From a virus (taxonomy: Duplodnaviria > Caudoviricetes): a stretch of DNA of 64,000 bases. Made by a program: the position numbers and the translations under genes. Shown one piece after another: positions 6,408 through 62,311 of this stretch (positions within the stretch are counted from its first letter, which is position 1; each line of letters starts with the position of its first letter). The notes under the pieces are model-generated. The model saw only the letters and a program-made list of their open reading frames with translations, ran no database searches and had not been told where the DNA came from. The stretch is from IMG/VR virus record IMGVR_UViG_3300033233_001970; one strand, given 5' to 3'.

Positions 6408-6439
6408 GGTTCGTTCCCCTTACTGAGCGTGACCCCCTA

Positions 6440-6468
6440 ATGGTACACACTACGAGGTCGGCTGTCAA
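6440..6468 (-). promoter_or_regulatory. sigma70-type promoter TTGACA-N17-TACCAT
   Basis: perfect -35, 17-bp spacer and TAnnnT -10 in an intergenic gap. Confidence 0.75.
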
Positions 6469-6472
6469 GTCC

Positions 6473-6769
6473 CTAGTAGTAGTTGTCCGGTTCGTCCGGT
6501 TCGTCGGGCTCTGAATCTTGTGCGGCGAGCCGCAGCTTATCCTCGGCATCTTTGGTCTCCGTGTCCGAAAGTTCGCCGTCCCACGGGCTTCCCGTGTTCG
6601 TGACGACCTCGACGATTTCGGGTTCGCCGCCTTCGTCGGGCGAACAGTTCTCGGGAAGTCGGTTCGTGATTGCGCGTCGGTACGCGCTGACGTTGCCGCG
6701 CACGAGCAACTCGATTTCGTCGGAGTCGCGCTCGATGTAAAACGGTACTTCGAACTGGAATTTGATCAT
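6473..6769 (-). CDS. acidic hypothetical protein
   Basis: ATG 6769 overlapping upstream stop. Confidence 0.55.
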   Translation of the reverse strand: MIKFQFEVPFYIERDSDEIELLVRGNVSAYRRAITNRLPENCSPDEGGEPEIVEVVTNTGSPWDGELSDTETKDAEDKLRLAAQDSEPDEPDEPDNYY

Positions 6770-7032
6770 GGCACGTACACCACCTCTGTTCCACGCTCCT
6801 CCGCGAGCTGATTCTCGACACGGAGAAAGGCTTGTGACTCCGCGATGAGCGCCATGCGTTTGCAGCCGGGTTCGTGCGCTCCTTCGCTTTCGAGCGCATG
6901 GCACTCGGGGCAACAGGCGACATACTCTGGGTGACAATGGCAGCCTTGTCGGGCCTGCCCTAGCCACTCACCGTCGATTGCAAGCTGCAACAGATCGGCG
7001 ACGATGTGGCTGATTCCTTTCACGGGCGTCAC
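6766..7032 (-). CDS. hypothetical protein (Cys/His rich)
   Basis: 88 aa, coupled. Confidence 0.55.
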   Translation of the reverse strand: MTPVKGISHIVADLLQLAIDGEWLGQARQGCHCHPEYVACCPECHALESEGAHEPGCKRMALIAESQAFLRVENQLAEERGTEVVYVP

Positions 7033-7850
7033 TCATAATCGCGCACCGCAATGAATCTCGGCGCGCGCGGCTTTCCTGTAGTCGAAAGCGCGTCGTATCG
7101 AATCGTGACGCGCGCACCGACCTTCGGAGGATTCTTGCACTCGTCTACGTCGAGCCCGCTCCCTACGTTGAACTCGACGCCGTTAGGGAACTTGCAGACT
7201 AGCGCGCCGATGACGCCCGCGCGCGATCCTTTGCCTTGCGTGTAGCCGGTCACGACGGCCTCGGCGTCGTGCGTAACTTTGACCTTGAGAAGCGTCATCG
7301 AACGCGCGCAGGCGTAGAGCGATCGGGCGCGTCGAAGCATGATCCCTTCGCCGTCCGCGTCGCGAACCTTTTCGAACGTTTCCTCGAAATGTGCTCGCGA
7401 ACGGCAAAGCGTCTGCTCGACCATGCGAACATGCACCGCGCCGACGTAGCTCACGAGCCGCGCGAGATTCGAGAGGCGTGCCTCGAAAGGAATCTTCCCG
7501 ATCGCGCCGTGCGAAAAATTCGTCACGTCTGGCGCGTCGAACGCCATGTAGCGAATGCTCGACCATTCACGCGAGCTTGCTCGGTCGGATTTCACGATTC
7601 CGACGATGCGCTGAAATTCTTTGTAGCCACGATCGGGGCCGCAAAGCTCACCGTCGAGAACTTCGCCGCGAGGAAAGCGATTGACGAACTCGGCGGGCGC
7701 CGCGATGACGTGCCAATGTTCGCGCGTGCGCAGATGGGAGCCGTCCCAAATGGCGCGTACACCGTCGAGTTTTTCGCTCATGTAGTGACCCGTTGGGTCG
7801 ATCGTCGTGTTGTACGTCTCGGCGAGGAGGACGCGATCTTTGGAGGACAT
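7029..7850 (-). CDS. lig: minimal ATP-dependent DNA ligase
   Basis: motif I SEKLDGVR, LDGEL, FDAP, EGIMLR, LLKVK, C-terminal OB domain (VGSG...PRAPRF). Confidence 0.92.
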   Translation of the reverse strand: MSSKDRVLLAETYNTTIDPTGHYMSEKLDGVRAIWDGSHLRTREHWHVIAAPAEFVNRFPRGEVLDGELCGPDRGYKEFQRIVGIVKSDRASSREWSSIRYMAFDAPDVTNFSHGAIGKIPFEARLSNLARLVSYVGAVHVRMVEQTLCRSRAHFEETFEKVRDADGEGIMLRRARSLYACARSMTLLKVKVTHDAEAVVTGYTQGKGSRAGVIGALVCKFPNGVEFNVGSGLDVDECKNPPKVGARVTIRYDALSTTGKPRAPRFIAVRDYE

Positions 7851-7852
7851 TT

Positions 7853-8347
7853 CTATTTCCTCCCCCTTGCCGTTTTCTTCGCTTTCGGCGTTTTCTTCGC
7901 GACGTCTTCGACGTCTCCGACATTGAAATCGTACGTCTCGCCCAAAAGACGCGAAAGTTTCTCGCAGACTTCTTTCGGGTCGCCGCCTAGCTCTTTAACG
8001 GGCCATCCGTGAAAGAGATCGCGAATCATCGCTCGCGCGTGCCTCAGTACCTCGGCGTCGTCGTGCATGAAGCGAGCACGAATCGGTGACTCCGCGAAAA
8101 TCTTGCTGTCGCCGATGTCGGCGGCAAAATCGCGCTCGCACTTGTCGCAGTAGAAAATTGCGCGACCGTGGATGTCGCGATCCGCTTCCTGACCGTCCCA
8201 ATTCACCCTTGTTTCGCCGGAATATTCGAGCGTCTTTTTGCCTTTGTCGTCGCACTTCTCTAGGAACGCGAGGCAACCGGGAATCGTTTCACTCGTCGCG
8301 ATCGGCAGTTCACCGCACGTCGGGCATTTTACGAGTGGAAAACTCAT
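7853..8347 (-). CDS. Zn-ribbon hypothetical protein
   Basis: ATG 8347; CPTC...CDKC. Confidence 0.55.
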   Translation of the reverse strand: MSFPLVKCPTCGELPIATSETIPGCLAFLEKCDDKGKKTLEYSGETRVNWDGQEADRDIHGRAIFYCDKCERDFAADIGDSKIFAESPIRARFMHDDAEVLRHARAMIRDLFHGWPVKELGGDPKEVCEKLSRLLGETYDFNVGDVEDVAKKTPKAKKTARGRK

Positions 8348-8559
8348 GGGCTCACCTTTGGAGCGAAACGTGTTTCCGTTTCCGTAACGGCTTCGGTCAA
8401 CGTGCGAACGGCGCAGAGCGAGCGACCGCACATCACGCACCGACCACCATCGATGCACATTTTTGTGTGACGCGCGCCGCACGCAGGACAATGCTTTCCG
8501 AGCCAACTGAAGAGCGCTTTTGCGACGCTGCGCGCCTCTCCCCAAGATGTGATTTTCAT
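8344..8559 (-). CDS. small Cys-rich hypothetical protein
   Basis: 71 aa, coupled. Confidence 0.45.
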   Translation of the reverse strand: MKITSWGEARSVAKALFSWLGKHCPACGARHTKMCIDGGRCVMCGRSLCAVRTLTEAVTETETRFAPKVSP

Positions 8560-8894
8560 GGTGCCCTCTGGTAATCGGTCACGATGAACGCGGCGAGGTC
8601 GCGCACGATGCCGCGCAGATCGCGAATGTTTTCTCGTAGCTCGCGATCGGTGTAACCGGCGAATTTCCGCAGATCGTTGGTTGAGCCGTGCAGCGTAGGC
8701 GCGAATACTTTTTCTCCGCGCAGCATACGGTACTGTTTTTCGAGATCGCGCTTGAGCCCCTCTAGGGCATCCTCGGCGATTTCTTGCTTCGGGTACCGTT
8801 GTCCTGCGAAGTAGAATGAGCCTACGGCGTAGACGGGATCGCCACTGGACGAATGCCAGTGTTGCATACGCTCGCCGAGATCGACGCGATTCAC
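8556..8894 (-). CDS. hypothetical protein
   Basis: GTG 8894 overlapping upstream stop; WHSSSGDPVYAVGS motif. Confidence 0.55.
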   Translation of the reverse strand: MNRVDLGERMQHWHSSSGDPVYAVGSFYFAGQRYPKQEIAEDALEGLKRDLEKQYRMLRGEKVFAPTLHGSTNDLRKFAGYTDRELRENIRDLRGIVRDLAAFIVTDYQRAP

Positions 8895-9316
8895 GACGCC
8901 ACCTTGACGGGCTCGTCGCCGATTTCGTAGTCGTCGAGCATTTTGGCGAAGCCAGACGCCGCCTCGCTTACGTGCTCTTGACGTCCGTAGTTTGTCCACT
9001 CTTCGACCGTGTAGCGCGACGGTTTCCTACGGAGCGAGGCAAACTCACAGAACGATTGTACGTGACCGGCGAGATTCGGAAACTCGCACGACCAGTGCAT
9101 CAGATCGAATCGGCCTTCGTACGTTTCGCCGTCAGCGAACGTGATTTTGAAATCGCATTTGTCGTAGCCGCCGTTTTTCGGCGCGGTATGCGACCAACGC
9201 ATCAGTGTTTCGTTGGCCCGTTGCCAAACGCGCTCACCCTCGATTGCGGGAGCAGGGCCGCATTCATCGGCGAAGCCCTCGGCGCGGTACAATTCAATTT
9301 TGATGGCTCGGATCAT
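8891..9316 (-). CDS. LPD25 (large polyvalent protein-associated domain 25)-like protein
   Basis: GGYDKCDFKITFADGETYEGRFDL signature. Confidence 0.7.
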   Translation of the reverse strand: MIRAIKIELYRAEGFADECGPAPAIEGERVWQRANETLMRWSHTAPKNGGYDKCDFKITFADGETYEGRFDLMHWSCEFPNLAGHVQSFCEFASLRRKPSRYTVEEWTNYGRQEHVSEAASGFAKMLDDYEIGDEPVKVAS

Positions 9317-9326
9317 TTTCGCCTCT

Positions 9327-9800
9327 TTAGTTACTGCACGACACGATCGGGTTGTCTCTGTTGATTCCTGCATCGACGCACCCGACGACTCCCGTACACG
9401 TGGACGTGTAGTGCGCCATGATGCACGCACAGTTGTACGAACCTGCGCACTGACATTGGATCGGTGTCGGAACATTTCCGTCCGCTCCGGCCGATGGGGT
9501 CACGTAACAGAAACGTGTGGGCGCGCTGACGACCATGCCGTTGCAGCTCCACGCGCGCGGAGGAATCGGCATGCACATCGAAGAATCGCTGACGTTCGCG
9601 GTGTCGGACGTCACGTCCGTTGTTTGCGCGTCGAGCGCGGTACCGACCTCGCCGCCGTGTGCGTCGGCGGATCCATCGGCCGAGGTCGAACCGTCGCCGC
9701 CGCTTGCCGCGCCATCGCCCGCGCCCGCGTCTGAATCGATGATCGGAGAAGCGTCGCCGCAGGCGGCGAGAGCGGAAAAGAAGAAGGCTCGTATTTTCAT
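9327..9800 (-). CDS. Cys-rich lipoprotein, myxobacterial style
   Basis: signal peptide with lipobox LAAC, D-A-G/S low-complexity linker, C-terminal multi-Cys domain. Confidence 0.7.
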   Translation of the reverse strand: MKIRAFFFSALAACGDASPIIDSDAGAGDGAASGGDGSTSADGSADAHGGEVGTALDAQTTDVTSDTANVSDSSMCMPIPPRAWSCNGMVVSAPTRFCYVTPSAGADGNVPTPIQCQCAGSYNCACIMAHYTSTCTGVVGCVDAGINRDNPIVSCSN

Positions 9801-9893
9801 TTGCGCGCCGCGCGTTCCGAACGACGATCAGGTTTGGGGTTCGTGATCGTCTTGCTCAATACGAAGATTCCTTCTTTCATGTGAATGATCCTT

Positions 9894-10097
9894 TCATCGG
9901 CCTTCCGGCGCAGGTTCCCGCAGGAGCCGCCGTAATTTCGAGGTGAGGTACGGCGCAATCTCCGATTGCGAGCCTCCCATCGGAATCAAAATCGTTCGCC
10001 CGTTCGGCAAACGGTAAATGTGATGGTCGCCGTCTTTGCGGTCGAGCACACCGCCCGCAGGGATGACGTGCTTGCGGACGAATTCTCGAGATTTCAT
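9894..10097 (-). CDS. hicA: HicA-family toxin (no adjacent hicB)
   Basis: 67 aa, MKSREF...RKDGDHHIYRLPNGRTILIP; G-x-H HicA motif and fold pattern. Confidence 0.7.
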   Translation of the reverse strand: MKSREFVRKHVIPAGGVLDRKDGDHHIYRLPNGRTILIPMGGSQSEIAPYLTSKLRRLLREPAPEGR

Positions 10098-10265
10098 TTC
10101 GAAACCTCAATCGGCTTCGCTCGCCACCAATGCCATCCAGGCCCGCCGCTCGGCATGAACGGAACGATTTGCTTCAGTTCCGTTTTGCAGTTCGGACAGT
10201 GGTACTTGCCCTCGTAGAGTCCGGTTCGGCCTTTGGGCGAAGATCCCTAAAATCATCGACGTCGC

Positions 10266-10502
10266 TCATGGGTCGGACTCCTCTATCAATCGATCGATTT
10301 CCGTGTCCGCGCGCCGAAGCTCGGCAATGAGCCGATCTCGCTCTCTTGCGGCTTCGTAGAGCCGCCGATTCTGAGCCTCCACGAGTCGCGTCATGTGTTG
10401 GCCGTGAAGCCAAAGCTGCAAGAGTTGGCGAACATCTTTGTAGGATGCGGTTCCGCGCGCCCGCTTGAGCATGGGTTTGAACGTGCGCAAGAACGGGAAC
10501 AT
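10266..10502 (-). CDS. coiled-coil hypothetical protein
   Basis: 78 aa, coupled. Confidence 0.5.
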   Translation of the reverse strand: MFPFLRTFKPMLKRARGTASYKDVRQLLQLWLHGQHMTRLVEAQNRRLYEAARERDRLIAELRRADTEIDRLIEESDP

Positions 10503-10503
10503 T

Positions 10504-11232
10504 TCAGCTTTTCAATTGTCCGCCGCTACCGCCGCCCATGCGGCTCCCGGTGTGAATGTTGGCGCCGTCCACTTTTCCGCGCGCGAACGCGCCGAAGTCG
10601 CTGGCCCCTCCGAAATGTCCACCGCTGCGCAACTTTTCGTGAAGCTCTTTCAAGCGCTCTTCGGCTTCGCTTTGCCTGCGATCGAAAATCGCGAGTGCGG
10701 CGCTCTGCGGAGCAGCGGCGCGCGCTTCCTCGCGTGCCGTTTTCTTCGCGTGGTACATGGCATCGAGCACGCCTCGTGATGCGCCGTGCTTGTAGGAATT
10801 GATCCACGCTTTTCCTTGACCGGAAAAGCGTTTCGCGAGCCGCTCGATTTCGAGCACGAGCCACGAATACATGTAGCGCGCCGTCGAGACGTCGGACGGC
10901 CGACCGATGACGTGAAGCGACGTGCCCCATCGCCCGCGCTTTCCTGGCGTTCGGTAACACGCGCAGTTGTAGTGCCGAATGAGTTGCACCGCGAGCGACA
11001 ATTGCCATTGCGGCACGCTACCGTCCCACCGCGCGAATGCGTCGCGATCTTCGTCCGGTCTTTCGCCGACCTCACCACTGTCGGCTTGTAGCTGCGCCTC
11101 TTGCAAGCCGTGCTCTTGAATGAGCCTGTCGGCAGCAGCGGCAGCAGCGGCAGCTTCATGTTCCGTCGCGGCGGCATTCGTGGCGAGTCGCCGTAGTTTT
11201 TGAACCTTTGCGATCAATTCGTCGAGTGCCAT
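10504..11232 (-). CDS. DUF2786-domain protein
   Basis: N-terminal KVQKLRRLA...TEHEAAAA...A-RLIQEHGL typical of DUF2786; C-terminal AFARGKVDG. Confidence 0.75.
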   Translation of the reverse strand: MALDELIAKVQKLRRLATNAAATEHEAAAAAAAADRLIQEHGLQEAQLQADSGEVGERPDEDRDAFARWDGSVPQWQLSLAVQLIRHYNCACYRTPGKRGRWGTSLHVIGRPSDVSTARYMYSWLVLEIERLAKRFSGQGKAWINSYKHGASRGVLDAMYHAKKTAREEARAAAPQSAALAIFDRRQSEAEERLKELHEKLRSGGHFGGASDFGAFARGKVDGANIHTGSRMGGGSGGQLKS

Positions 11233-17164: not shown

Positions 17165-18130
17165 CTACACCTTCCGGCTTACGAGATCCGCGATCTCACC
17201 AGCGAAATCCTGGCGCGCGTCGTCGTAAATTGACAGTGTGCGCCCATCAGCATGGCGGCTGAACTTCTGCACTTTCCTTGTGTTACCGTTCGTCTCGTCG
17301 AGTGCTGTCGTGATCGCGGTATGGCGCAAACCGTGAGGCCGAACCTTTCCGACATCCGCTTTTTTGCCGAGATTTTTAATGATCGCATACACAGCGGAGC
17401 CGGTAAGCGCGTGGCCGTAGCTGTTGCGGTCGAGAGCGATGAACAACGGCCCAGGTTCATTTCCGCGAACGACGAGCCATGCACGTAACGCGTCCTTGGT
17501 TTTCTCAGGAAGCGTAACCCTTTCACGAGCATGTCGCCCTTTCCCGAACACCCATACGATACCTTCTTCGAGGTCTAAATGCTCGAGGTGAAGTGACACG
17601 ACCTCACCGCGACGAAATGCAACATCATGAAGTAGCCGAACGAGCGCCGCATCGCGAACGCCTTTCGAGTCGGTACGTTCCTTCAATGCGTTGATCATTT
17701 TCTTGATTTTATCTTCGCCTGGGCCTCGCGTATCGCGGTACGGCTGCACATCGAGCCCTTCGATTTCGATGTTCCAGTTCACCATGCCGAGCATTCTTGC
17801 GAGTTTCACGATGGATCGAATCGCGGCAAGGCGACGGTTTATTGTTGTAGCTTGCAATGGTTTTTCAGTGGCTTGCGATGTTTTTTCGAGCATGTGCGCG
17901 CGATACCGGAGAACAAGCTCGTTCGCGGCGCCCGCTTCGCGCCGAAGAAGCTCGTCGACGGCGTCGCCGACGGCTGCAAGCTCGAGGAATGCTCGGAAGT
18001 CTTCAAGATCGCGACTGTACGCGCGCAATGTGTTCGGGCTGCGGCCGTTCAGAAACGCAGCAATCAAGCGCTGCGCCACGGAGCCCTCATTGACGAGCTC
18101 TGTGTGAGTGGAAAGCACGAGATCGCTCAT
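17165..18130 (-). CDS. tyrosine recombinase/integrase (XerC/D-like)
   Basis: SAM-like N-terminus (SPNTLRAYSRDL, ATTINRRLAAIRS); catalytic R (AFRRGE), K (GKG), HxxR (HGLRH), H (SRH), Y (SIYDD). Confidence 0.92.
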   Translation of the reverse strand: MSDLVLSTHTELVNEGSVAQRLIAAFLNGRSPNTLRAYSRDLEDFRAFLELAAVGDAVDELLRREAGAANELVLRYRAHMLEKTSQATEKPLQATTINRRLAAIRSIVKLARMLGMVNWNIEIEGLDVQPYRDTRGPGEDKIKKMINALKERTDSKGVRDAALVRLLHDVAFRRGEVVSLHLEHLDLEEGIVWVFGKGRHARERVTLPEKTKDALRAWLVVRGNEPGPLFIALDRNSYGHALTGSAVYAIIKNLGKKADVGKVRPHGLRHTAITTALDETNGNTRKVQKFSRHADGRTLSIYDDARQDFAGEIADLVSRKV

Positions 18131-26824: not shown

Positions 26825-28729
26825 GTGATGGAAGCAGAAGATGTGGAAGTGGAAGAGAACGTCGAAATCAGCGCTGGCCGTACCCGCGTCTACAAGTACG
26901 GTCTCCTTGCGCCTACCGTGAATACCAAGATCGTCGAAGCGCAGATGCGGCTCGCGCACAACTATCGCAATACGCTTGTCGAGATCGAGCGTGGGCGTCG
27001 CAATGCGCAGCGTTCTGTGCTTGCGAAATTCGATCTCTCCGGAAAGGAACAGGCGGTTCTGGCCACAAGAGCGGAGCTCGAAGCTGCCTTGCTCGCGGTG
27101 CGCGTTGCGCGTGCAGCCTCAAGATCACGTTCCGAGACCGAAGATATGCGTGATCGGGTCAAGGCGGCGAGAAAATCACACAAAGAATCGACGAAGGCTC
27201 TCGCGATCGAGCGCAAAGCGCTCCGCGCGGACACCCAAGTTCAGCTCGAGATCGACGTCATCAACGATCGTGCGGCTGAATTGCGCCGCAGCGCGCGTGC
27301 GTTTTCGGGCCTCGGAGAAATGGGGCCTCACTTCGGTGCGTGGGGCACCTATTTGCTGATCGAAGCCGCCGACATGGCAGCGCGAAAAGCTCCATTCTTC
27401 AAGGATTCGGAGCCCAACGACCCGAGATTCGTTCGATTCGAGGGCGAAGGTCAGGTGAGCGTACAGCTTCAAGGCGGCATGAGCGTCGAGGATCTTTTCA
27501 GCGGCTTCCATGCACGCGCACGTGTCGACGCCGTAAACGAAAATGCGTGGTTCGCGAAGAAGCGCGGAGACCGCAGGCGCGCCTCGCGCACGATGCTGTC
27601 GCTTCGGGTCGCCTCCGAAGGTCGCGATCCCGTGTGGGCGACGTGGCCGATGATCATGCACAGACCGATTCCAGAAGGCGCGAGTATTCAACGCATCACC
27701 GTGAGCCGTCGAAAGTACGGCCCGCGTGAAGAATGGTCGGTCGATTTCACACTGAAACTCTCCGACAAGACTCCGGCACGCACAAAATGCGGGCAATCGG
27801 GCGTGGTGACGATCGATCTCGGGTGGCGAACGATCGGCAACGAGATCCGTGTCGCTGCGTGGCGCGACGATCAAGGAAAACATGGTGAGCTACGCCTCGA
27901 CGCGCGTGCTGTTTCGGGATTGAAGAAGCCGGACGAGCTCCGATCGCTTCGTGACGAAAAGTTCAACTTTGCGCGGGCTGCTCTCATCGAAATATTGGGA
28001 AAGGTAACCATTCCCGATTGGCTTCGAGAGGAGATTTCACACATCGCGCAATGGCGCTCGCAGGCGCGACTCGCAGCGCTCGCTCGAAAGTGGAGCGATC
28101 GTCACTTCGAAGGTGACGACGAGGCGTACGCGATGATCGAAACATGGCGCTACCGCGACCACCATCTGTGGGAATACGAATCTGGACAGCGCATCGGTTC
28201 GTTGCGGCATCGGCGCGAGATCTATCGACGCTTCGCCGCCGAGCTCGGGCGGAAGTACAAGACACTTCTTCTCGAGGATTTCGACCTGCGCGGGGTCGCG
28301 ACACGGGCACCGACCGAAGAAGGAGCAGAAAATCTCGTTGCTCGTCGGAACCGGCAACTCGCCGCCGTCAGTGAGCTTCGCGGCTGCCTCTGCAATGTTT
28401 TCGGCGAAGACGCGTTGAAGGTTTCTCCTGAAAATTCGACGCACATTTGCAACGCATGCGGAGCGGTCGAGGAGTTCGACGCAGCTTTGAAGATCGATCA
28501 CACGTGTTCGGCGTGCGGAGCGACGTGGGATCAGGACGACAACGCGACGATCGTGCTTTTCGAGAGGTGGCGCGCCGCGAAAAAGGCGGAAGCCGCTCGC
28601 GCGGCTGAAAATCCGAAGGATGCTAATGTGGTACGCGAATCAAGATGGGTTCGGGCAAAGAGAATGAAGGAGGCAAAAATCGAAAGACAGAACGCTGCTC
28701 GCAACAAGGATCCGAAAGACGAGGAATGA
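26825..28729 (+). CDS. cas12m: type V-M CRISPR effector (Cas12m / former V-U1)
   Basis: 634 aa; VYKYGL...QMRLAHNYRNTLV, RFEGEGQVSVQLQ, MHRPIP, RuvC-I TIDLGWR, QWRSQARLA, RuvC-II LLLEDF, Zn ribbon CNAC/CSAC, RuvC-III WDQDDNA; array begins 19 bp after the stop. Confidence 0.88.
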   Translation: MMEAEDVEVEENVEISAGRTRVYKYGLLAPTVNTKIVEAQMRLAHNYRNTLVEIERGRRNAQRSVLAKFDLSGKEQAVLATRAELEAALLAVRVARAASRSRSETEDMRDRVKAARKSHKESTKALAIERKALRADTQVQLEIDVINDRAAELRRSARAFSGLGEMGPHFGAWGTYLLIEAADMAARKAPFFKDSEPNDPRFVRFEGEGQVSVQLQGGMSVEDLFSGFHARARVDAVNENAWFAKKRGDRRRASRTMLSLRVASEGRDPVWATWPMIMHRPIPEGASIQRITVSRRKYGPREEWSVDFTLKLSDKTPARTKCGQSGVVTIDLGWRTIGNEIRVAAWRDDQGKHGELRLDARAVSGLKKPDELRSLRDEKFNFARAALIEILGKVTIPDWLREEISHIAQWRSQARLAALARKWSDRHFEGDDEAYAMIETWRYRDHHLWEYESGQRIGSLRHRREIYRRFAAELGRKYKTLLLEDFDLRGVATRAPTEEGAENLVARRNRQLAAVSELRGCLCNVFGEDALKVSPENSTHICNACGAVEEFDAALKIDHTCSACGATWDQDDNATIVLFERWRAAKKAEAARAAENPKDANVVRESRWVRAKRMKEAKIERQNAARNKDPKDEE

Positions 28730-28748: not shown

Positions 28749-29827
28749 GTTGCAAAGGTTGCTCGACACCTGGGAGATCGAGACGTGCTACCGGTGAAGA
28801 CGATTTGGCGTCCGAAATCGTTGCAAAGGTTGCTCGACACCTGGGAGATCGAGACAGTTGGAGCGCGAGATCCGCGCCGTCGCATTGCGGAGTTGCAAAG
28901 GTTGCTCGACACCTGGGAGATCGAGACTACGTGAACACCGTGTGCTCGGAGCCACTCGGCGAGTTGCAAAGGTTGCTCGACACCTGGGAGATCGAGACAG
29001 CACCCAATTGATCGTCTGCGGCGTCGACGACGCGTTGCAAAGGTTGCTCGACACCTGGGAGATCGAGACAAATCCTCGGCGGCCCGCCTCGTCCTCCGCT
29101 ACCTCGTTGCAAAGGTTGCTCGACACCTGGGAGATCGAGACACGGCGAATGAGAAGACCGCCGCACGCGAGAGCGCGGTTGCAAAGGTTGCTCGACACCT
29201 GGGAGATCGAGACTCGGCGAAGCAACGTCAACGCGCCGCGATGCGCCGCGTTGCAAAGGTTGCTCGACACCTGGGAGATCGAGACGTGCTGACGGACGAC
29301 TTTCATTCGGCCGGACGAATCGTTGCAAAGGTTGCTCGACACCTGGGAGATCGAGACTCTCGCCGTTCGGATCGAGACGGTTGCTCGACACCTGGGAGAT
29401 CGAGACTGGTGCCAGAAGGGTTTACGGCGTCGCAAAGGTTGCTCGACACCTGGGAGATCGAGACATCCCGTTAGCGTGTGAAGCCTAAGGCGTCGCGCTG
29501 TTGCAAAGGTTGCTCGACACCTGGGAGATCGAGACGATGCCGATCAGTCGCGCGAGGACGCGACGTCGGCTGGTTGCAAAGGTTGCTCGACACCTGGGAG
29601 ATCGAGACTCTAGGTTGAGCTCAGCGATCTTCTCTTCGACTTCGGTTGCAAAGGTTGCTCGACACCTGGGAGATCGAGACAAGTACCCAACGAAGTACCA
29701 CCTCGCGCACGCCGGGCTGTTGCAAAGGTTGCTCGACACCTGGGAGATCGAGACAGGTAGGGGCGCAAAGGCCGCTGCCCGACGTCAAGGAGTTGCAAAG
29801 GTTGCTCGACACCTGGGAGATCGAGAC
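28749..29827 (+). CRISPR. CRISPR array, repeat GTTGCAAAGGTTGCTCGACACCTGGGAGATCGAGAC (36 bp), 16 repeats
   Basis: 14 perfect copies, one single-mismatch copy (29429) and one 5'-truncated copy (29379); most spacers 35-38 bp; AGGT/ACCT stem plus CTCGA/TCGAG pseudoknot as in Cas12m-type repeats. Confidence 0.98.
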
Positions 29828-29884
29828 CCGGCGCGCGGGTCGCACTACGGCGCCGCGTCGCATGTTGCAAAGGCCGCGTCGCAT

Positions 29885-30396
29885 GTTGCAAAGGTTGCTC
29901 GACACCTTCTAGTTCGAGACGCGCTCGCCGGTTGCTCGACACCAGAAGATCGAGACAGCTTGAATCCCTGCGGTTCTTGCAAAGGTTGCTCGGCACCATT
30001 GAAGATCGAGACTTCACGATTCCCGAAAAGGCAGCTCGACGCCTTGAGCTCGAGACTTCTTTGCGGCCATTTCTCAAAGGTAGCTCGATACCTAGAAATT
30101 CGAGACGAGTCCCGTCTCCAGCAAAGGCTGCTCGACGCCTTCGAAGTCGAGATAGGAGAGCTTCGGAGTTGTAGAATCGTGACAGCAAAGGTAGCTCGAC
30201 GCCTTCGAAGTCGAGGACTACTACGACAACGGACCAGCGGCGGCTCGATGCCGTGAAATTCGAGACTAAGCCACTTGTAAAGGTAGCTCGACACCTTGAA
30301 GCTCGAGACTACATGGGCAGAATCGTAACGGCAGCTCGATGCCTAAAGATCGAGAATCGCCCTCGCAACGGCAGCTCGACGCCTAAAGATCGAGAC
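29885..30396 (+). CRISPR. tail of 11 diverged repeats with short intervening spacers
   Basis: repeats ending at 29920, 29956, 30012, 30056, 30106, 30153, 30218, 30266, 30309, 30356 and 30396; all keep GG-x-x-GCTCG...CC...TCGAG. Confidence 0.85.
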
Positions 30397-30411: not shown

Positions 30412-31020
30412 ATGAAATTCTCCGACATCAAACTTCTCTCCGTGGGCGACACGATCGGCATGGTCGGCGCCGTCTATCTCGACGAGAAAGAAGAGCAGCT
30501 CATCGTCTTCTTTTTTCCTGGCGAGTACGACGGCGCGCCGAGGCTCGGTCTCACCATCAAGCCCGAAGCCGTCGATATGACGGTCGAGGATTGGACGGCA
30601 TTTCTTCGTCAAACCGACTTGCTCGAGACGGAGATTCTCGCCAAGGAATCGAAAGAGAGTGCGACGTTCTACAAAGCGATCGTGCGCAAGAGTCAACGAA
30701 GTATCGATCAGATCGTGTCGTGGCGCGTCTACAAAAGAGATCAATACCGTTGTAGATATTGCGGCAACGACAACATCCCGCTCACGGTCGACCATCTGGT
30801 TCTTTGGGAAAAGGGCGGCCCAAGCACGGAGGCGAACCTTCTGAGTTGCTGCAAAAAATGCAACAAGGTTCGCGGCAACATGCCGTACGCGGAATGGCTC
30901 ACGCACGCGCACTATGCTCGTGTTTCGGCCAAGCTCGACGACACAACGAAGCGCGCGAACGAAGCGCTCGTCGCTACGCTCGACAAGATCCCGCTCAATG
31001 TGCACATCAAGTCGAGGTAA
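30412..31020 (+). CDS. HNH endonuclease with unrecognised ~100-aa N-terminal domain
   Basis: VYKRDQYRCRYCG...LTVDHLV...GGPSTEANLLSCCKKCNKVRG. Confidence 0.88.
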   Translation: MKFSDIKLLSVGDTIGMVGAVYLDEKEEQLIVFFFPGEYDGAPRLGLTIKPEAVDMTVEDWTAFLRQTDLLETEILAKESKESATFYKAIVRKSQRSIDQIVSWRVYKRDQYRCRYCGNDNIPLTVDHLVLWEKGGPSTEANLLSCCKKCNKVRGNMPYAEWLTHAHYARVSAKLDDTTKRANEALVATLDKIPLNVHIKSR

Positions 31021-55328: not shown

Positions 55329-56015
55329 ATGCGTCGGAAGATCCAGACGACGAACAATGCCGGCGCAGACGCCGTCACCTACGCCAAGGCTCGCGATGGA
55401 CTTTATTGGTATTTTCGTCGCTACGGCATCGACGAGAGCCGGTTCGGATGGCAGATTGAGCCGCTCGGAGGAAAGCTGGAGATCAAGTACGGAAGCAAAG
55501 TGAAAATCTATCGCGTGCCGGCGGCTCCGCTTCTCGAGCACGTGCCTGATGATCCCGCTTGGGGTTACCGTGGCATGTCCTGGGAAGAGTGGAAATTCAT
55601 CCGCATCGAGAAACGTATCGAGAGCCTGTACGCGCACAACTTGGGCGAAGAGCAAACAGGTTTCACATTCTTCGGCAAGGCAAGCCAAGCAGAATCCTAC
55701 GCTTCGGGTTTCGCGCCGCTGCCGTACTTGCCGGCCTTTCGCCGACCAGGTGTTGTTGTCGCTGTACCGCGAGAGCTTTTGCTTACGCACAAGGACAGGC
55801 CCAAGGCCATTCCGGGCTCGGAGTTGGCCGCGTTCGGGGCGTTGCCAGCAAGTGTCATTGGCGGCGTGTGGTACCTCATTCCGAATCGCATTCGGTTTGG
55901 GGCGCTAGACATTGTACTCGATCTTCTCTCCAACGTTACGCGATGGACGGACGGCAGCCGACACAACCCAAGCGTGAGCTACATCGTGTATCATGAGGCG
56001 TCCCATGCGACGTAA
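55329..56015 (+). CDS. hypothetical protein (YRGMS motif; possibly ADP-ribosyltransferase-like fold)
   Basis: GYRGMSWEEW...TFF...AESYA...VVVAV...SEL loosely follows the ART R-S-E layout. Confidence 0.4.
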   Translation: MRRKIQTTNNAGADAVTYAKARDGLYWYFRRYGIDESRFGWQIEPLGGKLEIKYGSKVKIYRVPAAPLLEHVPDDPAWGYRGMSWEEWKFIRIEKRIESLYAHNLGEEQTGFTFFGKASQAESYASGFAPLPYLPAFRRPGVVVAVPRELLLTHKDRPKAIPGSELAAFGALPASVIGGVWYLIPNRIRFGALDIVLDLLSNVTRWTDGSRHNPSVSYIVYHEASHAT

Positions 56016-56805
56016 CCCAGAAATCAAAAAACTTCTAGGCACCCTCGACAGCCCGCCAGGCAACGGCGGATTCGTCTACGAGGTTCAGGGAGACTCCACA
56101 ACCTGGCACGAGCTTGAATGGATTGTCCGTAAAGGAAAAAAGTGGCGGGTCTACACGGTGCCTTTGGATCAAGAAATTCCTCACTGGGGCAATCTTGCCG
56201 AGGCCGCAGGATCCGTCGGGATCAGTTTCGTCGAGCTCGGCAGAAGATTCGAGAGCGATGATCCGATGGAGCGAGCGAACGCATGGGAGATTTACGGCGA
56301 TTCCGAAGGCTGGGATGAAGTCGATGACACGTGGGAGGAGCTCGACGCGGACGAAGTCAACGACCGGTACTCGCTCGCCGTACCTGTCAAAGATCCAGTT
56401 CCGACAAAAATCCCGCCGCTCGACAATTTCACCGATGCGTACATCACGGCCGCGCTCTGGTCGACGAACGACGAATCAACACCGGCGGGCGGTGTACCGC
56501 TCGATCAGAACTACGGCATTCACGACATCCACCGCGACACGCTCAAGAAGATGATCGAGGACTGCGAGCGATTTCAGGCGATGAACATGCACGATCTCGA
56601 TCTCGCGTATCAACACAGCGGCGGACACGGCGGGTACGCTCCAGGCAACGCGGGCCATGATTTTTGGTTGACGCGCGGTGGCCATGGCACAGGATTCTGG
56701 GACCGTGGACTTGGCGACGTCGGCGACCGGCTCACGAAAGTGTCGGAAAAGTTCGGTGAATTCAATCTCTACGTCGGCGACGACGGGAAGATTCACGGTT
56801 CGTGA
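55993..56805 (+). CDS. two-domain phage protein (RRNP start; C-terminal GHDFWLTR...HGTGFWDR domain)
   Basis: N-domain paralogous to 53155; C-domain AYITAALWS...AGHDFWLTRGGHGTGFWDR is a recurrent phage family. Confidence 0.7.
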   Translation: MRRPMRRNPEIKKLLGTLDSPPGNGGFVYEVQGDSTTWHELEWIVRKGKKWRVYTVPLDQEIPHWGNLAEAAGSVGISFVELGRRFESDDPMERANAWEIYGDSEGWDEVDDTWEELDADEVNDRYSLAVPVKDPVPTKIPPLDNFTDAYITAALWSTNDESTPAGGVPLDQNYGIHDIHRDTLKKMIEDCERFQAMNMHDLDLAYQHSGGHGGYAPGNAGHDFWLTRGGHGTGFWDRGLGDVGDRLTKVSEKFGEFNLYVGDDGKIHGS

Positions 56806-57173
56806 GCCTCTGGCTTTCACCGCAAAAACCTTCGCTCGTGAAGCTCGAGCGCTTCGCTTGGTATCCGCACTTTCTCGACAACCTCGAAGACACGCTCATG
56901 GGTCATCGAGGAAAACCTGGCTTGCCGGAATACGTCACCGTTCGGTGGAAGAAGTACGACAAATTTCTTTTCACCATTGAGACCGATGACGAAGAAGACG
57001 ATCAGGAAGAATGGGCGTTTATCGATCACGTTGCAGAGCTCATCGGGGGCGGCGCCGATGTTCCGCCACTTGTTGCGCGACGCAATCGTCCTGAAGACGG
57101 CATTCATCGCGCATGGGCGGCGCGTAAGCTCGGACTCGAGGTCGCGCCGGTGATCGATCTCACAGAGATGTGA
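56802..57173 (+). CDS. ParB/Srx-like small protein
   Basis: VPPLV...EDGIHRAWAARKLGLEVAPV. Confidence 0.6.
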   Translation: MSLWLSPQKPSLVKLERFAWYPHFLDNLEDTLMGHRGKPGLPEYVTVRWKKYDKFLFTIETDDEEDDQEEWAFIDHVAELIGGGADVPPLVARRNRPEDGIHRAWAARKLGLEVAPVIDLTEM

Positions 57174-58037
57174 TCATTCTTCAGCGTCGACCATTTTAGC
57201 GTAGGCGTCACCGATTCGTCCCGCATGAGCGCTTGCTGAAGCCGCAGCTATTTGAATACTGCACGCCTCTCCCACTTTCGCGCCGCACAATCGACACGGC
57301 ACTTCGGTTACCAAGATACTTTTTTCGCCGCGTGTGAGCTTGAGAACGGTCGTCATTGCTTCATCTTCCGCGATGTTCGAAAAAAGCATTCGGCCACCGG
57401 CTGCCGATCCCTACTTCGACGGACTCGATTTTCCGCTCGGGCTCCCACCATCCACCTTGCTGGATGCCGATGCATGGGAAGATCGTGCAGTACCCGCCGA
57501 TTGCTTTGGCGGTGTACATGTGCCCTCGACCGCAGCGACCGGCAAAAGCAGCGGATGTTCGGTAGATGTTCATTTTGAAAGCGCCGCCTCTCCGGGTAGC
57601 TAATTCCGGGTGGACCGATACCGCCGCGTGGGATTGATTTGTTGCGAACATTGCAGTTCGGTGCGCGGTACCAGCGACGCCTTCCGGGCGGCAGCATCTC
57701 CCGCACCTCCAACCCAGACTTCGAGCGAACGGATCAGGGAGCCGAGGCGGCCCTTAGCCCCATGCCGGAGACATTACGACGGTTTGATACAAGCGGCCAT
57801 CTTCTCGACGCATCGCGAGCAGACGTACGCGTTGTTCTGGATCGGGGAAGGCGGATTCGTAACACCAATGACGCCCTGTGGACAGTCTTCGCCGCAGAGC
57901 GAACAATAGCGAAAGCCGTCGGGATCGGGCCAAAGTGAAACTCGATCGAGGTGGGCGCCCAAGATGCGCGACTCATCGTCGTGACCTAGCACGTTTTCGT
58001 CGCCGTTGCACTACAACTCTGGTATACAAATCGAGCC

Positions 58038-59471
58038 ATGAAAATCCACAACGTCCGCCTCGGCCTCGCCACGAACTCGAGCTCGACCCACTCGATCATC
58101 TTCACGAAGAACCGCGTGAAGGACAAAGACGTCGAGGGGCGCGAATTCGGCTGGGATCTTTGGACTGCTGCCTCGAAAGAAGCGAAGCGGCAGTACGTCG
58201 CGATCCATCTCCTTCACGCCATTCGTGGCCAGGTCTCCAAGGACGTCGCCGATGCGGTGCTCGAGCAGTGGATCCCAGGCGTCGAGCGTCCGGTGAAGGA
58301 AGACGACGAATTCGCATGGGACGAACAGGTTCGCGGCTACGTCGATCATCAGTCGGAATACGTGCTCCCGCGTGCGTGGGACGGCGCGGGTGTCGACAAG
58401 GCGTTCTTCGAGGACTTCCGCGACTTCTTCCTTCGTGACGACGTCGTCATCCTCGGCGGCAACGACAACGACGACGAGACTCACGAGCTCGGTAAGGGTT
58501 TCGTGCTCCCCATCACACGGGACGGCGGCGCAGGCGATATGGTCGCGCGCAAAGACGAACAGGGCGGCTATTGGACGCTCTTCGATCGCAACGACGGTAC
58601 TAAGATTCGGTTCTCGTTCGACACGCCAACTTCGAGAAAAGAAGTCACAAAGGCGTCCGCGCCAGAGCTTGTCGACATCAAGATCACCGACTTCTGTCCC
58701 TACAACTGCGCGTTTTGCTACCAGGGCTCGACCGGCGGCGGCAAACACGCCGATGTCGGCATGTTCTACCGCATTGCAGAAACGCTCGGACAGCTCCGCG
58801 TCTTCGAAGTTGCCATCGGCGGCGGCGAACCGACGCTTCACCCGAAGTTTCTCCAGATTCTCGACGCATTCAAGAGCCGTGGCATCGTCGCGAATTTCAC
58901 GACGAAGAATCTCGCGTGGCTCCGCGATGCGATGGCGTGGCCGAAGATCATGGAAAAGATCGGCGCATTCGCGTTTTCGGTCGATGACGAAAAAGACGTC
59001 GAGCAGCTCGCCGCGCTTCTCGAGGTGAACGGCATCGACACAAGCCAAGCGTCCGTGCAGTACGTCATGGGCTCCACCGACGTCTACAAGATGGAGCGGA
59101 TTATCGAGAAAGCGGCCGACGCCCGTCTTCGCATCACGCTCCTCGGCTACAAGACGACAGGACGTGGTTCGAGCTTCAAGCCGCAGCCGTACAAGGACTG
59201 GGTCAAGCGCGTCAAGAAGCTCTACGAACAGAAGCACTATTTCACGCTCGGCATCGACACCGCACTCGCCAAGGAAAGTGGTGGCGAGCTCGCCGACGAA
59301 CGCATCCCGACCAAGCTCTACGCGACGGACGAAGGCAAGTTCTCGATGTACATCGATGCGGTCGACGGAAAAATCGCGGCGTCGTCCTACGTCGAGGACA
59401 TCGCGATGAAACGCGCGGATCTCCAGAATCTCACCAAAGAGAAGCTCGTCGCGGCGTTCGCGGAGTGGTGA
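58038..59471 (+). CDS. radical SAM protein fused to an N-terminal TNSSS-motif domain
   Basis: MKIHNVRLGLATNSSSTHS; CPYNCAFC (CxxxCxxC); GGGEPTLHP; NFTT. Confidence 0.88.
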   Translation: MKIHNVRLGLATNSSSTHSIIFTKNRVKDKDVEGREFGWDLWTAASKEAKRQYVAIHLLHAIRGQVSKDVADAVLEQWIPGVERPVKEDDEFAWDEQVRGYVDHQSEYVLPRAWDGAGVDKAFFEDFRDFFLRDDVVILGGNDNDDETHELGKGFVLPITRDGGAGDMVARKDEQGGYWTLFDRNDGTKIRFSFDTPTSRKEVTKASAPELVDIKITDFCPYNCAFCYQGSTGGGKHADVGMFYRIAETLGQLRVFEVAIGGGEPTLHPKFLQILDAFKSRGIVANFTTKNLAWLRDAMAWPKIMEKIGAFAFSVDDEKDVEQLAALLEVNGIDTSQASVQYVMGSTDVYKMERIIEKAADARLRITLLGYKTTGRGSSFKPQPYKDWVKRVKKLYEQKHYFTLGIDTALAKESGGELADERIPTKLYATDEGKFSMYIDAVDGKIAASSYVEDIAMKRADLQNLTKEKLVAAFAEW

Positions 59472-59514
59472 CCGCGTCTTGACTTTCCGCGCCCGTCATG
59501 TCCGTAATGCAAGA

Positions 59515-60087
59515 ATGGCGAAACCGCCGTGGCCGTACGATCCGAGATTACGCGAGCTACTTGTCGCCTTTCTCAAGGTGGCAAAAAAAGTACGTAAATC
59601 CTATGCCATTGGCGGCGCCTTAGCGATGAGCGCCCACGGGTACGTACGTCAGACGTCGGATTTGGACGCGTTTCTTTTGGATGAGGATCGGCTCGATTGG
59701 TTACGCGCGCTCCGTAAGGCAGGTCTCACGATTGACAGCGTTTTTCGAGGTATTCACTACATCGCTTTTTTCCCGAAACACGCGGATCCGCGCATCCGTA
59801 TTGATTTGCTTTTCCCGGCTACGGAGCCCGAGTTAAGCGCAGTCGAATTCCCGGTGAGTGCAAAAATAGCTGGATTCAACGCAGAAGTATTCCCGTTGGA
59901 ATTACTTGTTGTGGCCAAGTTTTTGTCCGACAGGCCGGAAGATCAACGAGACTTCGACGTCATGTTCAATCTGGGTATTTTCGAACCGACCGCAGCTCGA
60001 AGAATTATCAAATCCATCGAGCCAAAGAAAGTCGTCGCTACTTTCGATCAAAGAATCAAAGACCTGAGCAGACCTCGCTTGCCGTGA
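59515..60087 (+). CDS. nucleotidyltransferase (AbiEii/DUF6036-like), lower-GC insert
   Basis: YAIGGALAMSAHG-VRQTSDLD...IDLL...AKFLSDRPEDQRD. Confidence 0.75.
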   Translation: MAKPPWPYDPRLRELLVAFLKVAKKVRKSYAIGGALAMSAHGYVRQTSDLDAFLLDEDRLDWLRALRKAGLTIDSVFRGIHYIAFFPKHADPRIRIDLLFPATEPELSAVEFPVSAKIAGFNAEVFPLELLVVAKFLSDRPEDQRDFDVMFNLGIFEPTAARRIIKSIEPKKVVATFDQRIKDLSRPRLP

Positions 60088-60094
60088 GGGTGCG

Positions 60095-60430
60095 ATGATG
60101 ACTGGCAAAGAAGCGGTTCGGATCATCAACGACTCCCTGAGCCGGTCAGGACGAACGAAATTTCGAAGAGCTACACGATCTCGTGGGTACAAATGCTGTC
60201 GCGACCATCGACGCACTTCAGGCGCTCACGACAGCGATCGAATACGCCATGCTTCTGCGCATGTAATGGACTGCATGTGCCAGACGTGCGGACGCGAATT
60301 TCATCTCTTGGTTCGTGCGTCGGAGTACGCCTCCGAAGCCGAATCGAACGAAGCGCCTCGGCTCTGCCCGCGCTGTTGGAAAGCGCAGCCCAAACCACCT
60401 AACCGCCCTCCGTTCCACGAAAATGACTGA
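60095..60430 (+). CDS. hypothetical protein with C-terminal Zn ribbon
   Basis: CQTCGREF...PRLCPRC. Confidence 0.4.
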   Translation: MMTGKEAVRIINDSLSRSGRTKFRRATRSRGYKCCRDHRRTSGAHDSDRIRHASAHVMDCMCQTCGREFHLLVRASEYASEAESNEAPRLCPRCWKAQPKPPNRPPFHEND

Positions 60431-60896
60431 ACGCGATCCTGACCCGTACGTGATGTACATCGTCGTGCGTAGGAGCTTGAAGCTCTCCGCTGGCAAAGTC
60501 GGCGCGCAGTGTGGTCACGCCGTCCAGTACCTCATGCAAGAATTTTTGCCCGAGAGATGGCCCACCAGAGACGAGGCGAAGCTCCTGTCACGAAAGGTTG
60601 CCGGAACGCTTACCGACGAAGAACGCACCCGCTTCGAGGCGTTGGAAAAAGAGAAAGACGACCGATACGAACGTTGCGTTACGGCCGGCGAATGGCTTAA
60701 GGGCGATCACGCGAAAATCATCCTCGGCGCGAGCGACGACGAGTTCATGAAAGTGCAGCTCGAGAACGAGCACTTCTTCATGGTCGTCGACCTCGGGTAC
60801 ACCCAGGTTGCGCCTGACACTGAGACGTCGCTCGGCTTATGGCCGATGAGAAAAAGCGCAGCGTCGGAAACCGTCAAGACATTGAGACCGTTGTAA
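60423..60896 (+). CDS. pth2: peptidyl-tRNA hydrolase, PTH2 family
   Basis: MYIVVRRSLKLSAGKVGAQCGHA...W...KIIL...VVDLGYTQVAPDTETSLGLWP. Confidence 0.88.
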   Translation: MTERDPDPYVMYIVVRRSLKLSAGKVGAQCGHAVQYLMQEFLPERWPTRDEAKLLSRKVAGTLTDEERTRFEALEKEKDDRYERCVTAGEWLKGDHAKIILGASDDEFMKVQLENEHFFMVVDLGYTQVAPDTETSLGLWPMRKSAASETVKTLRPL

Positions 60897-60925
60897 AGGC
60901 AGCTCGACGCCGTAAAGCTCGAGAC
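60890..60925 (+). repeat. solitary CRISPR-repeat-like unit GTTGTAAAGGCAGCTCGACGCCGTAAAGCTCGAGAC
   Basis: 36 bp; 27/36 identical to the array consensus and 31/36 to the diverged repeat at 30274-30309; both stems retained. Confidence 0.85.
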
Positions 60926-60950
60926 ACTCGATCCTCGACCGGGAGACATC

Positions 60951-61157
60951 ATGAACGAACACATTCTGCAATTCTTCGTATGGGAACACCTTCCCGAACA
61001 TCTCGCTGAGGTGAGCAAGCCGTTCGGCGAGCTCGCGAACCAGATCGTCGCGACGCTGCCGCGCAATCAGGAGCGCACCGTGGCGCTTCGCAAGCTGCTT
61101 GAGGCGAAGGACGCGGCGGTTCGCGCAAAGCTCGCGAAGGAAGACGTCACGAAGTAA
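60951..61157 (+). CDS. small helical phage protein (possible Acb2/Tad1-like hairpin)
   Basis: ILQFF...HLP-HL--VSKPF...LPRNQERTVALRKLLEAKDAAVRA; RBS GGGAG; the family link is tentative. Confidence 0.6.
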   Translation: MNEHILQFFVWEHLPEHLAEVSKPFGELANQIVATLPRNQERTVALRKLLEAKDAAVRAKLAKEDVTK

Positions 61158-61210
61158 CGGTTTTCGTTCCGCAACGTCAACGGCTTTCGTTGATGGTAGT
61201 ATCGGTGACG

Positions 61211-62311
61211 ATGCGTCGCCGTTCGAACCCTTACACGTCGCCGTGGACAGTGATCGAATACCGAATCACCCGTCGCCTGATCGACGGGATCGTGTATCTG
61301 GTTCTTCTCGAGCTCGTACAAGAGCCTGGCGAAAAACCGACGACTGCGGTGTACACGTGGCACGCTTCTAGAGCCGACCTCATAAAAACAGCAAAATTTA
61401 CCATACAAAACGCAGCGAGGCGCGAGAGAAACAGTCCGATTCCGGTTCGCTTGTTCGATGAGCGCGGCCAATGCCTCTACGCCGCGCGTAACAAGATGAT
61501 GCCGCCGAGCCACGACCCGAAATGGGGCTTGATCGGACAACGTCCTACGCCGTCGTGGGAAGAAATTCCGTGCGACGCGCGGCCAAACCCGCATGCCAGC
61601 AGGAAGCAGAACCCGATCTACTTCGACGATCTGCCGCTCGCGGAACGTCAGCGACACGCACAACTGTGGCGTGCGTCAATCGCGAAGCTTCGCGATCTGC
61701 CGTATCCGTTTCAGGCGACGTTCGACGGCGAGCGTATCACCGTGCTCGGTCGCGTACGGGATTTCGAACCCTACACAAGTCATCCATGCCAACAAGCTGA
61801 AGCTACCGACGAATCGATGATGGTTCGTGGATCGGATGGCAAGAAGTTCATCGTCTTCGGCCACAGCTTGTTCGTCGGCGACCAACGCCTCGTGTACCAG
61901 TCCGGCTACCGCCGCCGTCCTGTAGTTGATCCTTTGGGACTAGGATGGAAAGAAAACCCCGTCGGCGTCTTCATCTACGATCTCGACGCGCTCGACAAGC
62001 TCGCGGCGATGGAAGGCCAGGATTGGCTCAAAGACGATCGTCGTATGTGGGAACGGTACCGTAGCGGCAATACAGCGCACGCGTTCGTAACGGCGTGGAA
62101 GTTCACACGCCATCTCTCGCCGGAAGATTCGATCTATTGGAAAGACTATTTCGCGGGCGAGACAGGTGTGGAGCTCGGCGTCATCTACGGTAACGGCGGC
62201 TACGCGAGGTACGCCGTATCCAGCGAAGGTGAGATTCGGCTCGATCCAGGATCGACACGACCAGAGAAGGTAGCTCGAGCTCTCGGGCTAGGGTTTCGGG
62301 TGCCGCGATGA
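61211..62311 (+). CDS. modular protein with NP-delimited domains
   Basis: RRRSNPYT..., RPNP/KQNP, KENP junctions; first domain is a copy of the repeated domain. Confidence 0.7.
   Translation: MRRRSNPYTSPWTVIEYRITRRLIDGIVYLVLLELVQEPGEKPTTAVYTWHASRADLIKTAKFTIQNAARRERNSPIPVRLFDERGQCLYAARNKMMPPSHDPKWGLIGQRPTPSWEEIPCDARPNPHASRKQNPIYFDDLPLAERQRHAQLWRASIAKLRDLPYPFQATFDGERITVLGRVRDFEPYTSHPCQQAEATDESMMVRGSDGKKFIVFGHSLFVGDQRLVYQSGYRRRPVVDPLGLGWKENPVGVFIYDLDALDKLAAMEGQDWLKDDRRMWERYRSGNTAHAFVTAWKFTRHLSPEDSIYWKDYFAGETGVELGVIYGNGGYARYAVSSEGEIRLDPGSTRPEKVARALGLGFRVPR

Follow-up and report, generated by a model that had tools for sequence, protein, structure and literature searches.

What does a CRISPR repeat do when it stands alone inside a phage operon, some 30 kb from the nearest array? 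This question is raised by a 64,000-nucleotide (nt) stretch of phage-like DNA from IMG/VR record IMGVR_UViG_3300033233_001970 (the window; G+C 58%), which carries a gene for the CRISPR effector Cas12m, an array behind that gene and, far downstream, a solitary 36-nt repeat unit wedged between a pth2-like peptidyl-tRNA hydrolase gene and a small gene of 68 amino acids (aa). The stretch is part of a public contig of 119.6 kb assembled from a sediment metagenome. The unit had been pointed out in a sequence-only reading of the stretch. We located it letter for letter at 60890-60925 (+), as the sole match in the window at up to three mismatches, with 0 expected by chance. Its isolation was likewise as described: the nearest other unit lies 30.5 kb off, in an array on the same strand.

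We then examined whether the unit is a genuine type V-M (Cas12m) repeat with the full 36-nt CRISPR RNA (crRNA) scaffold. A covariance model (R1) was derived from an alignment (A1) of 12 array units, from which the solitary unit was excluded. A1 has 15 invariant columns and a fold of a 3-bp stem (columns 9-11 with 20-22) and a 5-bp pseudoknot (columns 14-18 with 31-35), in which 100% of the cells pair; pair 11-20 covaries (U-A in 6 units, C-G in 5 and U-G in 1). R1 recovered the solitary unit over its full length, 1-36, at 47.3 bits (E 4.3e-10), inside the range of 39.6-51.8 bits spanned by the array units themselves. The solitary unit is divided into a dispensable 5' flank (nt 1-8), the stem (nt 9-11 and 20-22) and the pseudoknot (nt 14-18 and 30-34); pairs 9-22, 10-21, 11-20 and 14-34 to 18-30 all form, and G13 and A35, the G:A closing pair, are present. 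The compensatory stem noted earlier was borne out, pair 11-20 being C-G in the solitary unit and U-A in the canonical repeat, with CTCGA/TCGAG intact. The nine differences from the canonical repeat (positions 5, 11, 12, 20, 23-26 and 29) are confined to variable columns, and all 15 invariant columns are retained (P = 0.003 under random placement). The closest units in the phage are those of the diverged array tail, again as had been reported: identity is 31/36 to the unit at 30274 vs 27/36 to the canonical repeat, and the stem plus 5' pseudoknot arm, GGCAGCTCGACGCC, is identical to that of the tail units at 30030 and 30370. Judged by its sequence, the solitary unit is a bona fide member of the V-M repeat family with every constrained position intact. 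The minimum free energy fold of 60860-60990 was no stabler than those of shuffled sequences (z = +1.4), a null result that is uninformative because a pseudoknot held by protein would be expected to give it.

The placement of the unit is as tight as its fold. The pth2-like gene (60423-60896, +; PF01981, E 3.3e-16) has its last codon and stop inside the unit, and checking of the reading frame confirmed the overlap that had been claimed, TAA 60894-60896 being unit nt 5-7. The PF01981 match extends to 2 residues before the C-terminal end, and the public assembly calls a 157-aa gene there. It is the T at unit position 5 that makes this stop; with the C of the canonical repeat, the codon would read CAA and the pth2 frame would continue into the small gene. 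The two genes share a reading frame, and the sole intervening stop in 60875-60990 is the TAA supplied by the unit. On the other side, 25 nt separate the end of the unit from ATG 60951 of the small gene (60951-61157, +; phrog_1761, E 7.2e-29), the distance given earlier. These 25 nt, read from the sequence as the 5' leader of the small gene (60926-60950, +), stand where the guide of a crRNA would be and are called the pseudo-guide below; the Shine-Dalgarno sequence GGGAG (60941-60945) is pseudo-guide nt 16-20. The gap between pth2 and the small gene measures 54 nt, 29 of them contributed by the unit (its first 7 nt lie within pth2), and neighbouring intergenic gaps range from -8 to 43 nt. A simple scan of 59900-61500 found no sigma-70-like promoter site, and the three terminator-like hairpins of the region are at shuffle level (2.5 expected), none of them flanking the unit. 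With tightly packed sense genes around it, and with neither a promoter-like nor a convincing terminator-like site found for it alone, the unit should be transcribed inside the operon mRNA. A look-up of RNA evidence listed no RNA run for the stretch; one DNA run, probably of the source sample, contains it.

The presumed partner of the unit is encoded in the same window. The open reading frame (ORF) at 26825-28729 (+) encodes a 634-aa Cas12m, whose best solved relative is 23vw_A (E 1.9e-92), described as "CRISPR-associated DNA-binding protein Cas12m"; Cas12m2 was also matched (E 1e-25), and PADLOC assigned Cas12u1 (E 4.6e-104). By these similarities, the CRISPR system of the window is of type V-M. 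A search for relatives of the protein gave 294, the nearest non-self one at 51% identity. The array begins 20 nt past the cas12m stop codon and occupies 28749-30396 with 28 units: 17 canonical units, two of them with a 5' truncation, are followed by 11 diverged units with short spacers. Its regular part (28749-29827, +) has 36-nt repeats and spacers mostly of 35-38 nt, and its tail (29885-30396, +) is the within-phage sub-family most like the solitary unit. The parallel drawn earlier with the HNH endonuclease gene (30412-31020, +; PF01844, E 1.6e-8) also held: the final array repeat ends at 30396, and the gene begins 15 nt further on, at ATG 30412.

Several features of the array were observed in passing. 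Spacers of the tail are only about 1-28 nt long, and its units preserve the pseudoknot and the stem, pair 11-20 covarying, with drift in the 5' flank and the loop, a pattern that looks like selection for Cas12m binding, not plain decay. In the regular part, the unit at 29371 is truncated at its 5' side and follows a 13-nt spacer, and the unit at 29429 has a single change in the 5' flank (GTCG for GTTG). Irregularities span 29322-29464 and 29828-29894, with a 21-nt tandem duplication, GCCGCGTCGCATGTTGCAAAG, present in two copies and including a repeat start. PHROG phage families and an integrase are found on the contig that carries the solitary unit; the tyrosine integrase gene (17165-18118, -) lies about 9 kb upstream of cas12m, which suggests that the element is temperate or integrative. 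Nothing was detected in the window by Rfam and tRNA scans.

It had been proposed that Cas12m is co-opted as a regulator of distant genes, in the plural, and that scanning of the contig with a model of the repeat might reveal further solitary copies. We scanned about 82 kb of the element with R1 (the window, with filters off, and a further ~18 kb), and no copy outside the array was found other than the unit at 60890. A single unit in ~82 kb does not support the plural. No unit lies upstream of cas12m, from which the solitary unit is 32 kb away. A partial model match of 21 bits at 19624-19652, within a 490-aa ORF, was set aside as probably a chance hit or dead fragment; it is devoid of the GG/CC stem. 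Exact look-ups for close relatives of the phage found the contig of the window and fragments of its own sample, and nothing else. The sole partial relative found, a complete 110-kb phage (L323; IMG/VR 3300033233_000015), shows 74-81% nucleotide identity over two flanking genes and has ~700 nt in place of a 6.3-kb module comprising a radical-SAM gene, pth2, the unit and the small gene (compared with window 55330-61610); L323 contains neither Cas12m nor any repeat unit.

We further explored the repeat family in other genomes. A single-protein query of IMG/VR for Cas12m relatives returned nothing, and an alignment-based search succeeded, giving 76 viral loci (L208-L283) that encode such relatives, most with an array right behind the gene. 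Phage-borne Cas12m is thus common, which conflicts with the claim of a 2026 preprint to have the first example. Isolated units were present within 10 kb of the Cas12m gene in L247, L245 (at 3811), L280 (at 3843, exact), L236, L239 and L258, and that of L247 (142-177) carries a compensatory A-U to G-C change. In the phage locus L268 (IMG/VR 3300020193_001248; array 5891-11173), exact repeats at 10550 and 11137 flank a 165-aa ORF, the second of them beginning 3 nt beyond the stop of this ORF. Exact repeats of phage Cas12m arrays that stand 100-4100 nt apart with ORFs between them were observed in L268, L254, L255 and L276. A loose core pattern gave only chance-level single matches in IMG/VR. A specific pattern scan detected the family in 34 metagenome stretches and one bacterial metagenome-assembled genome (MAG), with 31 non-redundant solitary units among the matches and several contigs carrying two to four dispersed units. 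Crude ORF-based context statistics were discarded as too noisy in GC-rich DNA, and a test for a Shine-Dalgarno sequence plus start codon was retained: both occurred within 60 nt downstream of 7/31 solitary units vs 9.6% of random positions (p = 0.025). The genes downstream are diverse and include those for a cement protein, the DnaN clamp and IF-3.

Two of these genomes deserve description. A complete 435-kb phage (G001; IMG/VR 3300027740_000003) contains exactly two solitary units, 149477-149512 and 385152-385187, which are 235 kb apart and each have a start codon 11 nt downstream; cas12m was not found in it, only a 393-aa TnpB-like ORF that weakly matches the part from RuvC-II to the zinc ribbon. 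The closest unit anywhere to that of the window (34/36 identity) lies at L284:5759-5794 (-) in an Acidobacteriaceae MAG (CAVSYM010000023.1), directly behind a consensus sigma-70 promoter, TTGACA-N17-TATTAT. This MAG has no detectable Cas12m, array or second unit, and no second site for the pseudo-guide of its unit was found within 3 mismatches in 7 Mb.

Known Cas12m biochemistry offers a frame for these observations. The crRNA of Cas12m2 has a 36-nt scaffold with nt -36 to -30 disordered, a stem and a pseudoknot with a closing G:A pair, and its guide forms a 17-bp heteroduplex with the target (PMC10442227). Cas12m cuts its pre-crRNA itself, upstream of or within the repeat (PMC11013384, PMC10442227), and, with D-E-D, H-D-D or N-D-D RuvC motifs, binds DNA next to T- or C-rich protospacer-adjacent motifs (PAMs) and leaves it uncut (PMC11013384, PMC10442227). 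The solitary unit resembles the type V-M crRNAs of MmCas12m2, GoCas12m and MsCas12m (PMC10442227, PMC11013384) in its 36-nt repeat, unstructured 5' end of ~7 nt, stem and pseudoknot; the repeats of those crRNAs have the 3' end ...GAC, as the unit does, and they are self-processed and act as single crRNAs with no trans-activating crRNA, as the unit would too. In contrast to the array-borne guides of bacterial defence, the solitary unit stands alone in a phage mRNA, and its "guide" is the leader of a gene.

As the explanation that we tentatively place first, while holding it with well under even confidence, we propose that the mRNA of the phage itself contains a Cas12m handle that acts in cis, by a cut at the pth2 stop and occlusion of a ribosome-binding site. 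The unit would be transcribed within the pth2-small gene mRNA, and the phage Cas12m, once made, would recognise its pseudoknot-plus-stem as it does in the array. Since Cas12m self-processes pre-crRNA within or upstream of the repeat, it may cleave the RNA upstream of the scaffold and stay bound to the leader; by homology with Cas12m2 and MsCas12m, the cut would fall within unit nt 1 to ~8, where the pth2 stop codon lies. Cas12m would remain on the new 5' end, holding the next 17-20 nt as a pseudo-guide with the Shine-Dalgarno sequence of the small gene included. The predicted outcome is a Cas12m-dependent uncoupling of the two cistrons with lower translation of the small gene, and mRNA stability may change too. 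That the unit serves as a working Cas12m crRNA scaffold, bound and processed, is part of this proposal and shares its tentative standing. We counted as parallels the repeat at the HNH start, the gene-bracketing repeats of L268, the two units of G001 and the 7/31 start-adjacent units. A wider version, which we consider somewhat doubtful, is that phage Cas12m has a second, RNA-level job in which it reads scaffolds in phage mRNAs, cuts polycistronic transcripts and covers adjacent ribosome-binding sites; the solitary unit, the repeats that bracket the L268 gene and the start-adjacent units would then be such sites.

A number of observations weigh against regulation in cis. Intact constrained positions could also be seen if a working unit had been copied there recently, with no selection at the site, and an intergenic spot before a gene is what is expected of any surviving insertion in a dense phage genome. 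One unit in ~82 kb does not make a regulon, and no close relative is available that could show the unit to be kept in place. A repeat unit was found near none of the small-gene homologues at 80 loci in other phages (0/80), so the small gene does not need the unit. The enrichment of solitary units before start codons is modest, and the G001 units, in a phage without cas12m, fit action on a foreign Cas12m at least as well. The functional roles suggested by the sequence-only reading survive in part: they are strengthened by the intact scaffold, by the sense orientation in a tight operon and by the recurrence of the family's lone units in other phages, some directly before start codons, and weakened where they invoked several distant genes or a stand-alone guide.

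That reading had listed mRNA processing, translational control, guide and decoy, and omitted a serious rival, the inert relic. The solitary unit may be a stray piece of the decaying array tail or of another element's array, left behind by recombination or by insertion of ~30 kb of genes and harmless where it lies; we regard this as unlikely on balance. It would explain why the unit is a single copy in ~82 kb, why within the phage it resembles the tail units (31/36) over the canonical repeat (27/36), and why its surroundings are a variable accessory module of 6.3 kb, which the nearest partial relative lacks. The array tail itself has deletions and truncated units, and gene-sized gaps between repeats in the arrays of other phages mean that arrays and genes do interleave. 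A further point in its favour comes from the pseudo-guide. The first 9 nt past the unit, ACTCGATCC (60926-60934), are also the first 9 nt of a genuine spacer (L295:11878-11886) in L295, a regular seven-repeat Cas12m array on another metagenome contig; among 3,783 cross-locus post-repeat pairs, no other pair shares more than 4 nt, and 0.014 would be expected to share at least 9 nt. The identity suggests a fragment of repeat plus spacer. The same nine nucleotides can pair with the 3' arm of the pseudoknot (TCGAG-ACA-CTCGA). Their sharing between the two loci points either to an ancestral unit of repeat plus spacer or to convergence, in which part of the repeat arm was copied. What speaks against a relic is the complete preservation of the 15 constrained positions, of the covarying pair and also of the 5' flank, together with the exact fit of the unit, in the sense direction, into the stop-to-start gap. 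Lone units also recur in many unrelated contigs, some with a compensatory change (L247) or a promoter of their own (L284), which argues that the retention of such units is, in general, not accidental.

The second rival shares the working scaffold with our proposal and differs in what the scaffold does. As an RNA decoy, comparable to an RNA anti-CRISPR (Racr), the excised unit would titrate the Cas12m of the host, of a competitor or, as a brake, of the phage itself, giving complexes without a useful guide; we rate this as rather improbable. Viral solitary units are established RNA anti-CRISPRs, validated for types I-C, I-E, I-F and V-A (PMC10651486), and they resemble the present unit as lone CRISPR repeats with an intact fold, outside arrays on a viral genome (Camara-Wilpert et al. 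2023, PMC10651486; Faure et al. 2019 as cited there). Lone units of the V-M family occur likewise in genomes with no detectable cas12m (the virus G001 and the L284 MAG), and the solitary unit is closer to foreign units (34/36 to that of L284 and 32/36 to that of L297) than to its own canonical repeat (27/36). Against this, the phage itself encodes the effector that would be titrated, together with a 28-unit array, whereas Racrs as a rule lack associated cas genes and mimic the repeat of the host. Described units usually lie directly behind a promoter, as the L284 unit does, whereas the solitary unit has no promoter of its own and is placed in an operon, where it runs over a stop codon and borders on a ribosome-binding site. 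Its neighbours are pth2 and a conserved phrog_1761 protein; no anti-CRISPR gene was recognised, and no known anti-defence gene adjoins the unit, the Acb2/Tad1 lead described below being unconfirmed.

Finally, the unit and the next 17-20 nt could form a crRNA-like guide acting in trans, which would direct Cas12m to a partly matching promoter of the phage, the host or a rival. Silencing by binding alone makes Cas12m suited to regulation (PMC11013384), and the targeting of effectors to promoters by stand-alone repeats is widespread (PMC10120712). The 82 kb of the element were searched with the 36 nt that follow the unit and with every spacer of the array, including the short ones of the tail. The stand-alone guide suggested earlier was not supported: neither the 82 kb nor the other DNA examined (~3.4 Mb in total) yielded a target of ACTCGATCCTCGACCGGGAG, whether full or partial; the best match of the pseudo-guide in the 82 kb (14 nt, 1 mismatch, E 1.6) is at chance level, as are those of the array spacers there. 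The phage and plasmid collections, queried with the array region and the L295 spacer only, gave no match to the array region, and the L295 spacer in the phage collection and the pseudo-guide in the loci examined produced chance-level matches only, with no protospacer for either. The crRNA-like RNAs and solitary repeat units in cas loci (Shmakov et al. 2023, PMC10120712), CreR/CreA and scaRNA are alike in joining a repeat-derived handle to a non-canonical "spacer" and in having a binding-only effector, whereas theirs lie in or beside the cas locus with a spacer partly matching a nearby promoter, and the solitary unit lies 30 kb away, with no target found in 82 kb. Even though the first 9 nt, the seed region, are common to the real L295 spacer and the unit's own locus would be spared, because GAC (the repeat end) occupies the place of a T- or C-rich PAM, we consider a trans-acting guide very unlikely, given a guide sequence that is set by the ribosome-binding site of the next gene, a unit remote from the cas locus, no better-than-chance match in the DNA searched and, for the L284 MAG unit too, no second site at up to 3 mismatches in 7 Mb.

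The gene whose expression would be affected by cis regulation is itself widespread. Relatives of the small protein are encoded in at least 575 IMG/VR stretches (575/600 among the matches listed), with identity of up to 81%. At the nucleotide level, the gene shows 69-79% identity to phages of Mesorhizobium, Microcystis, Mycobacterium and Myxococcus, which is unusually high conservation across distant hosts. The protein is predicted to be a helical hairpin (AF2 pLDDT 93.8); it had no Pfam match even at E 10, no PDB match with a single sequence or a profile, and no Foldseek match at E <= 0.001. A possible identity as Acb2/Tad1 was considered: Acb2_Tad1_hairpin occurs in 18% of the members of a neighbouring language-model cluster (Atlas), and the assignment was unconfirmed by Pfam, PDB and Foldseek.

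Taken alone, the instance is modest, being one unit with no relatives, and its value lies mainly in the cross-genome pattern of lone units. The known role of viral solitary repeats is that of decoys against host CRISPR systems, and the literature searched describes no V-M solitary unit and no Cas12m action on mRNAs. The locus departs from decoys in three respects: the phage owns the effector, the repeat lies in sense in an operon over a stop codon, and a ribosome-binding site is placed where a guide would be held. If Cas12m is inactive there, the unit marks the shuffling of arrays and genes in large phages. If Cas12m does act there, a DNA-binding CRISPR protein would also be a natural mRNA-processing or translation factor, a role new to class 2 effectors that would also provide a ready-made RNA handle for the control of synthetic operons.

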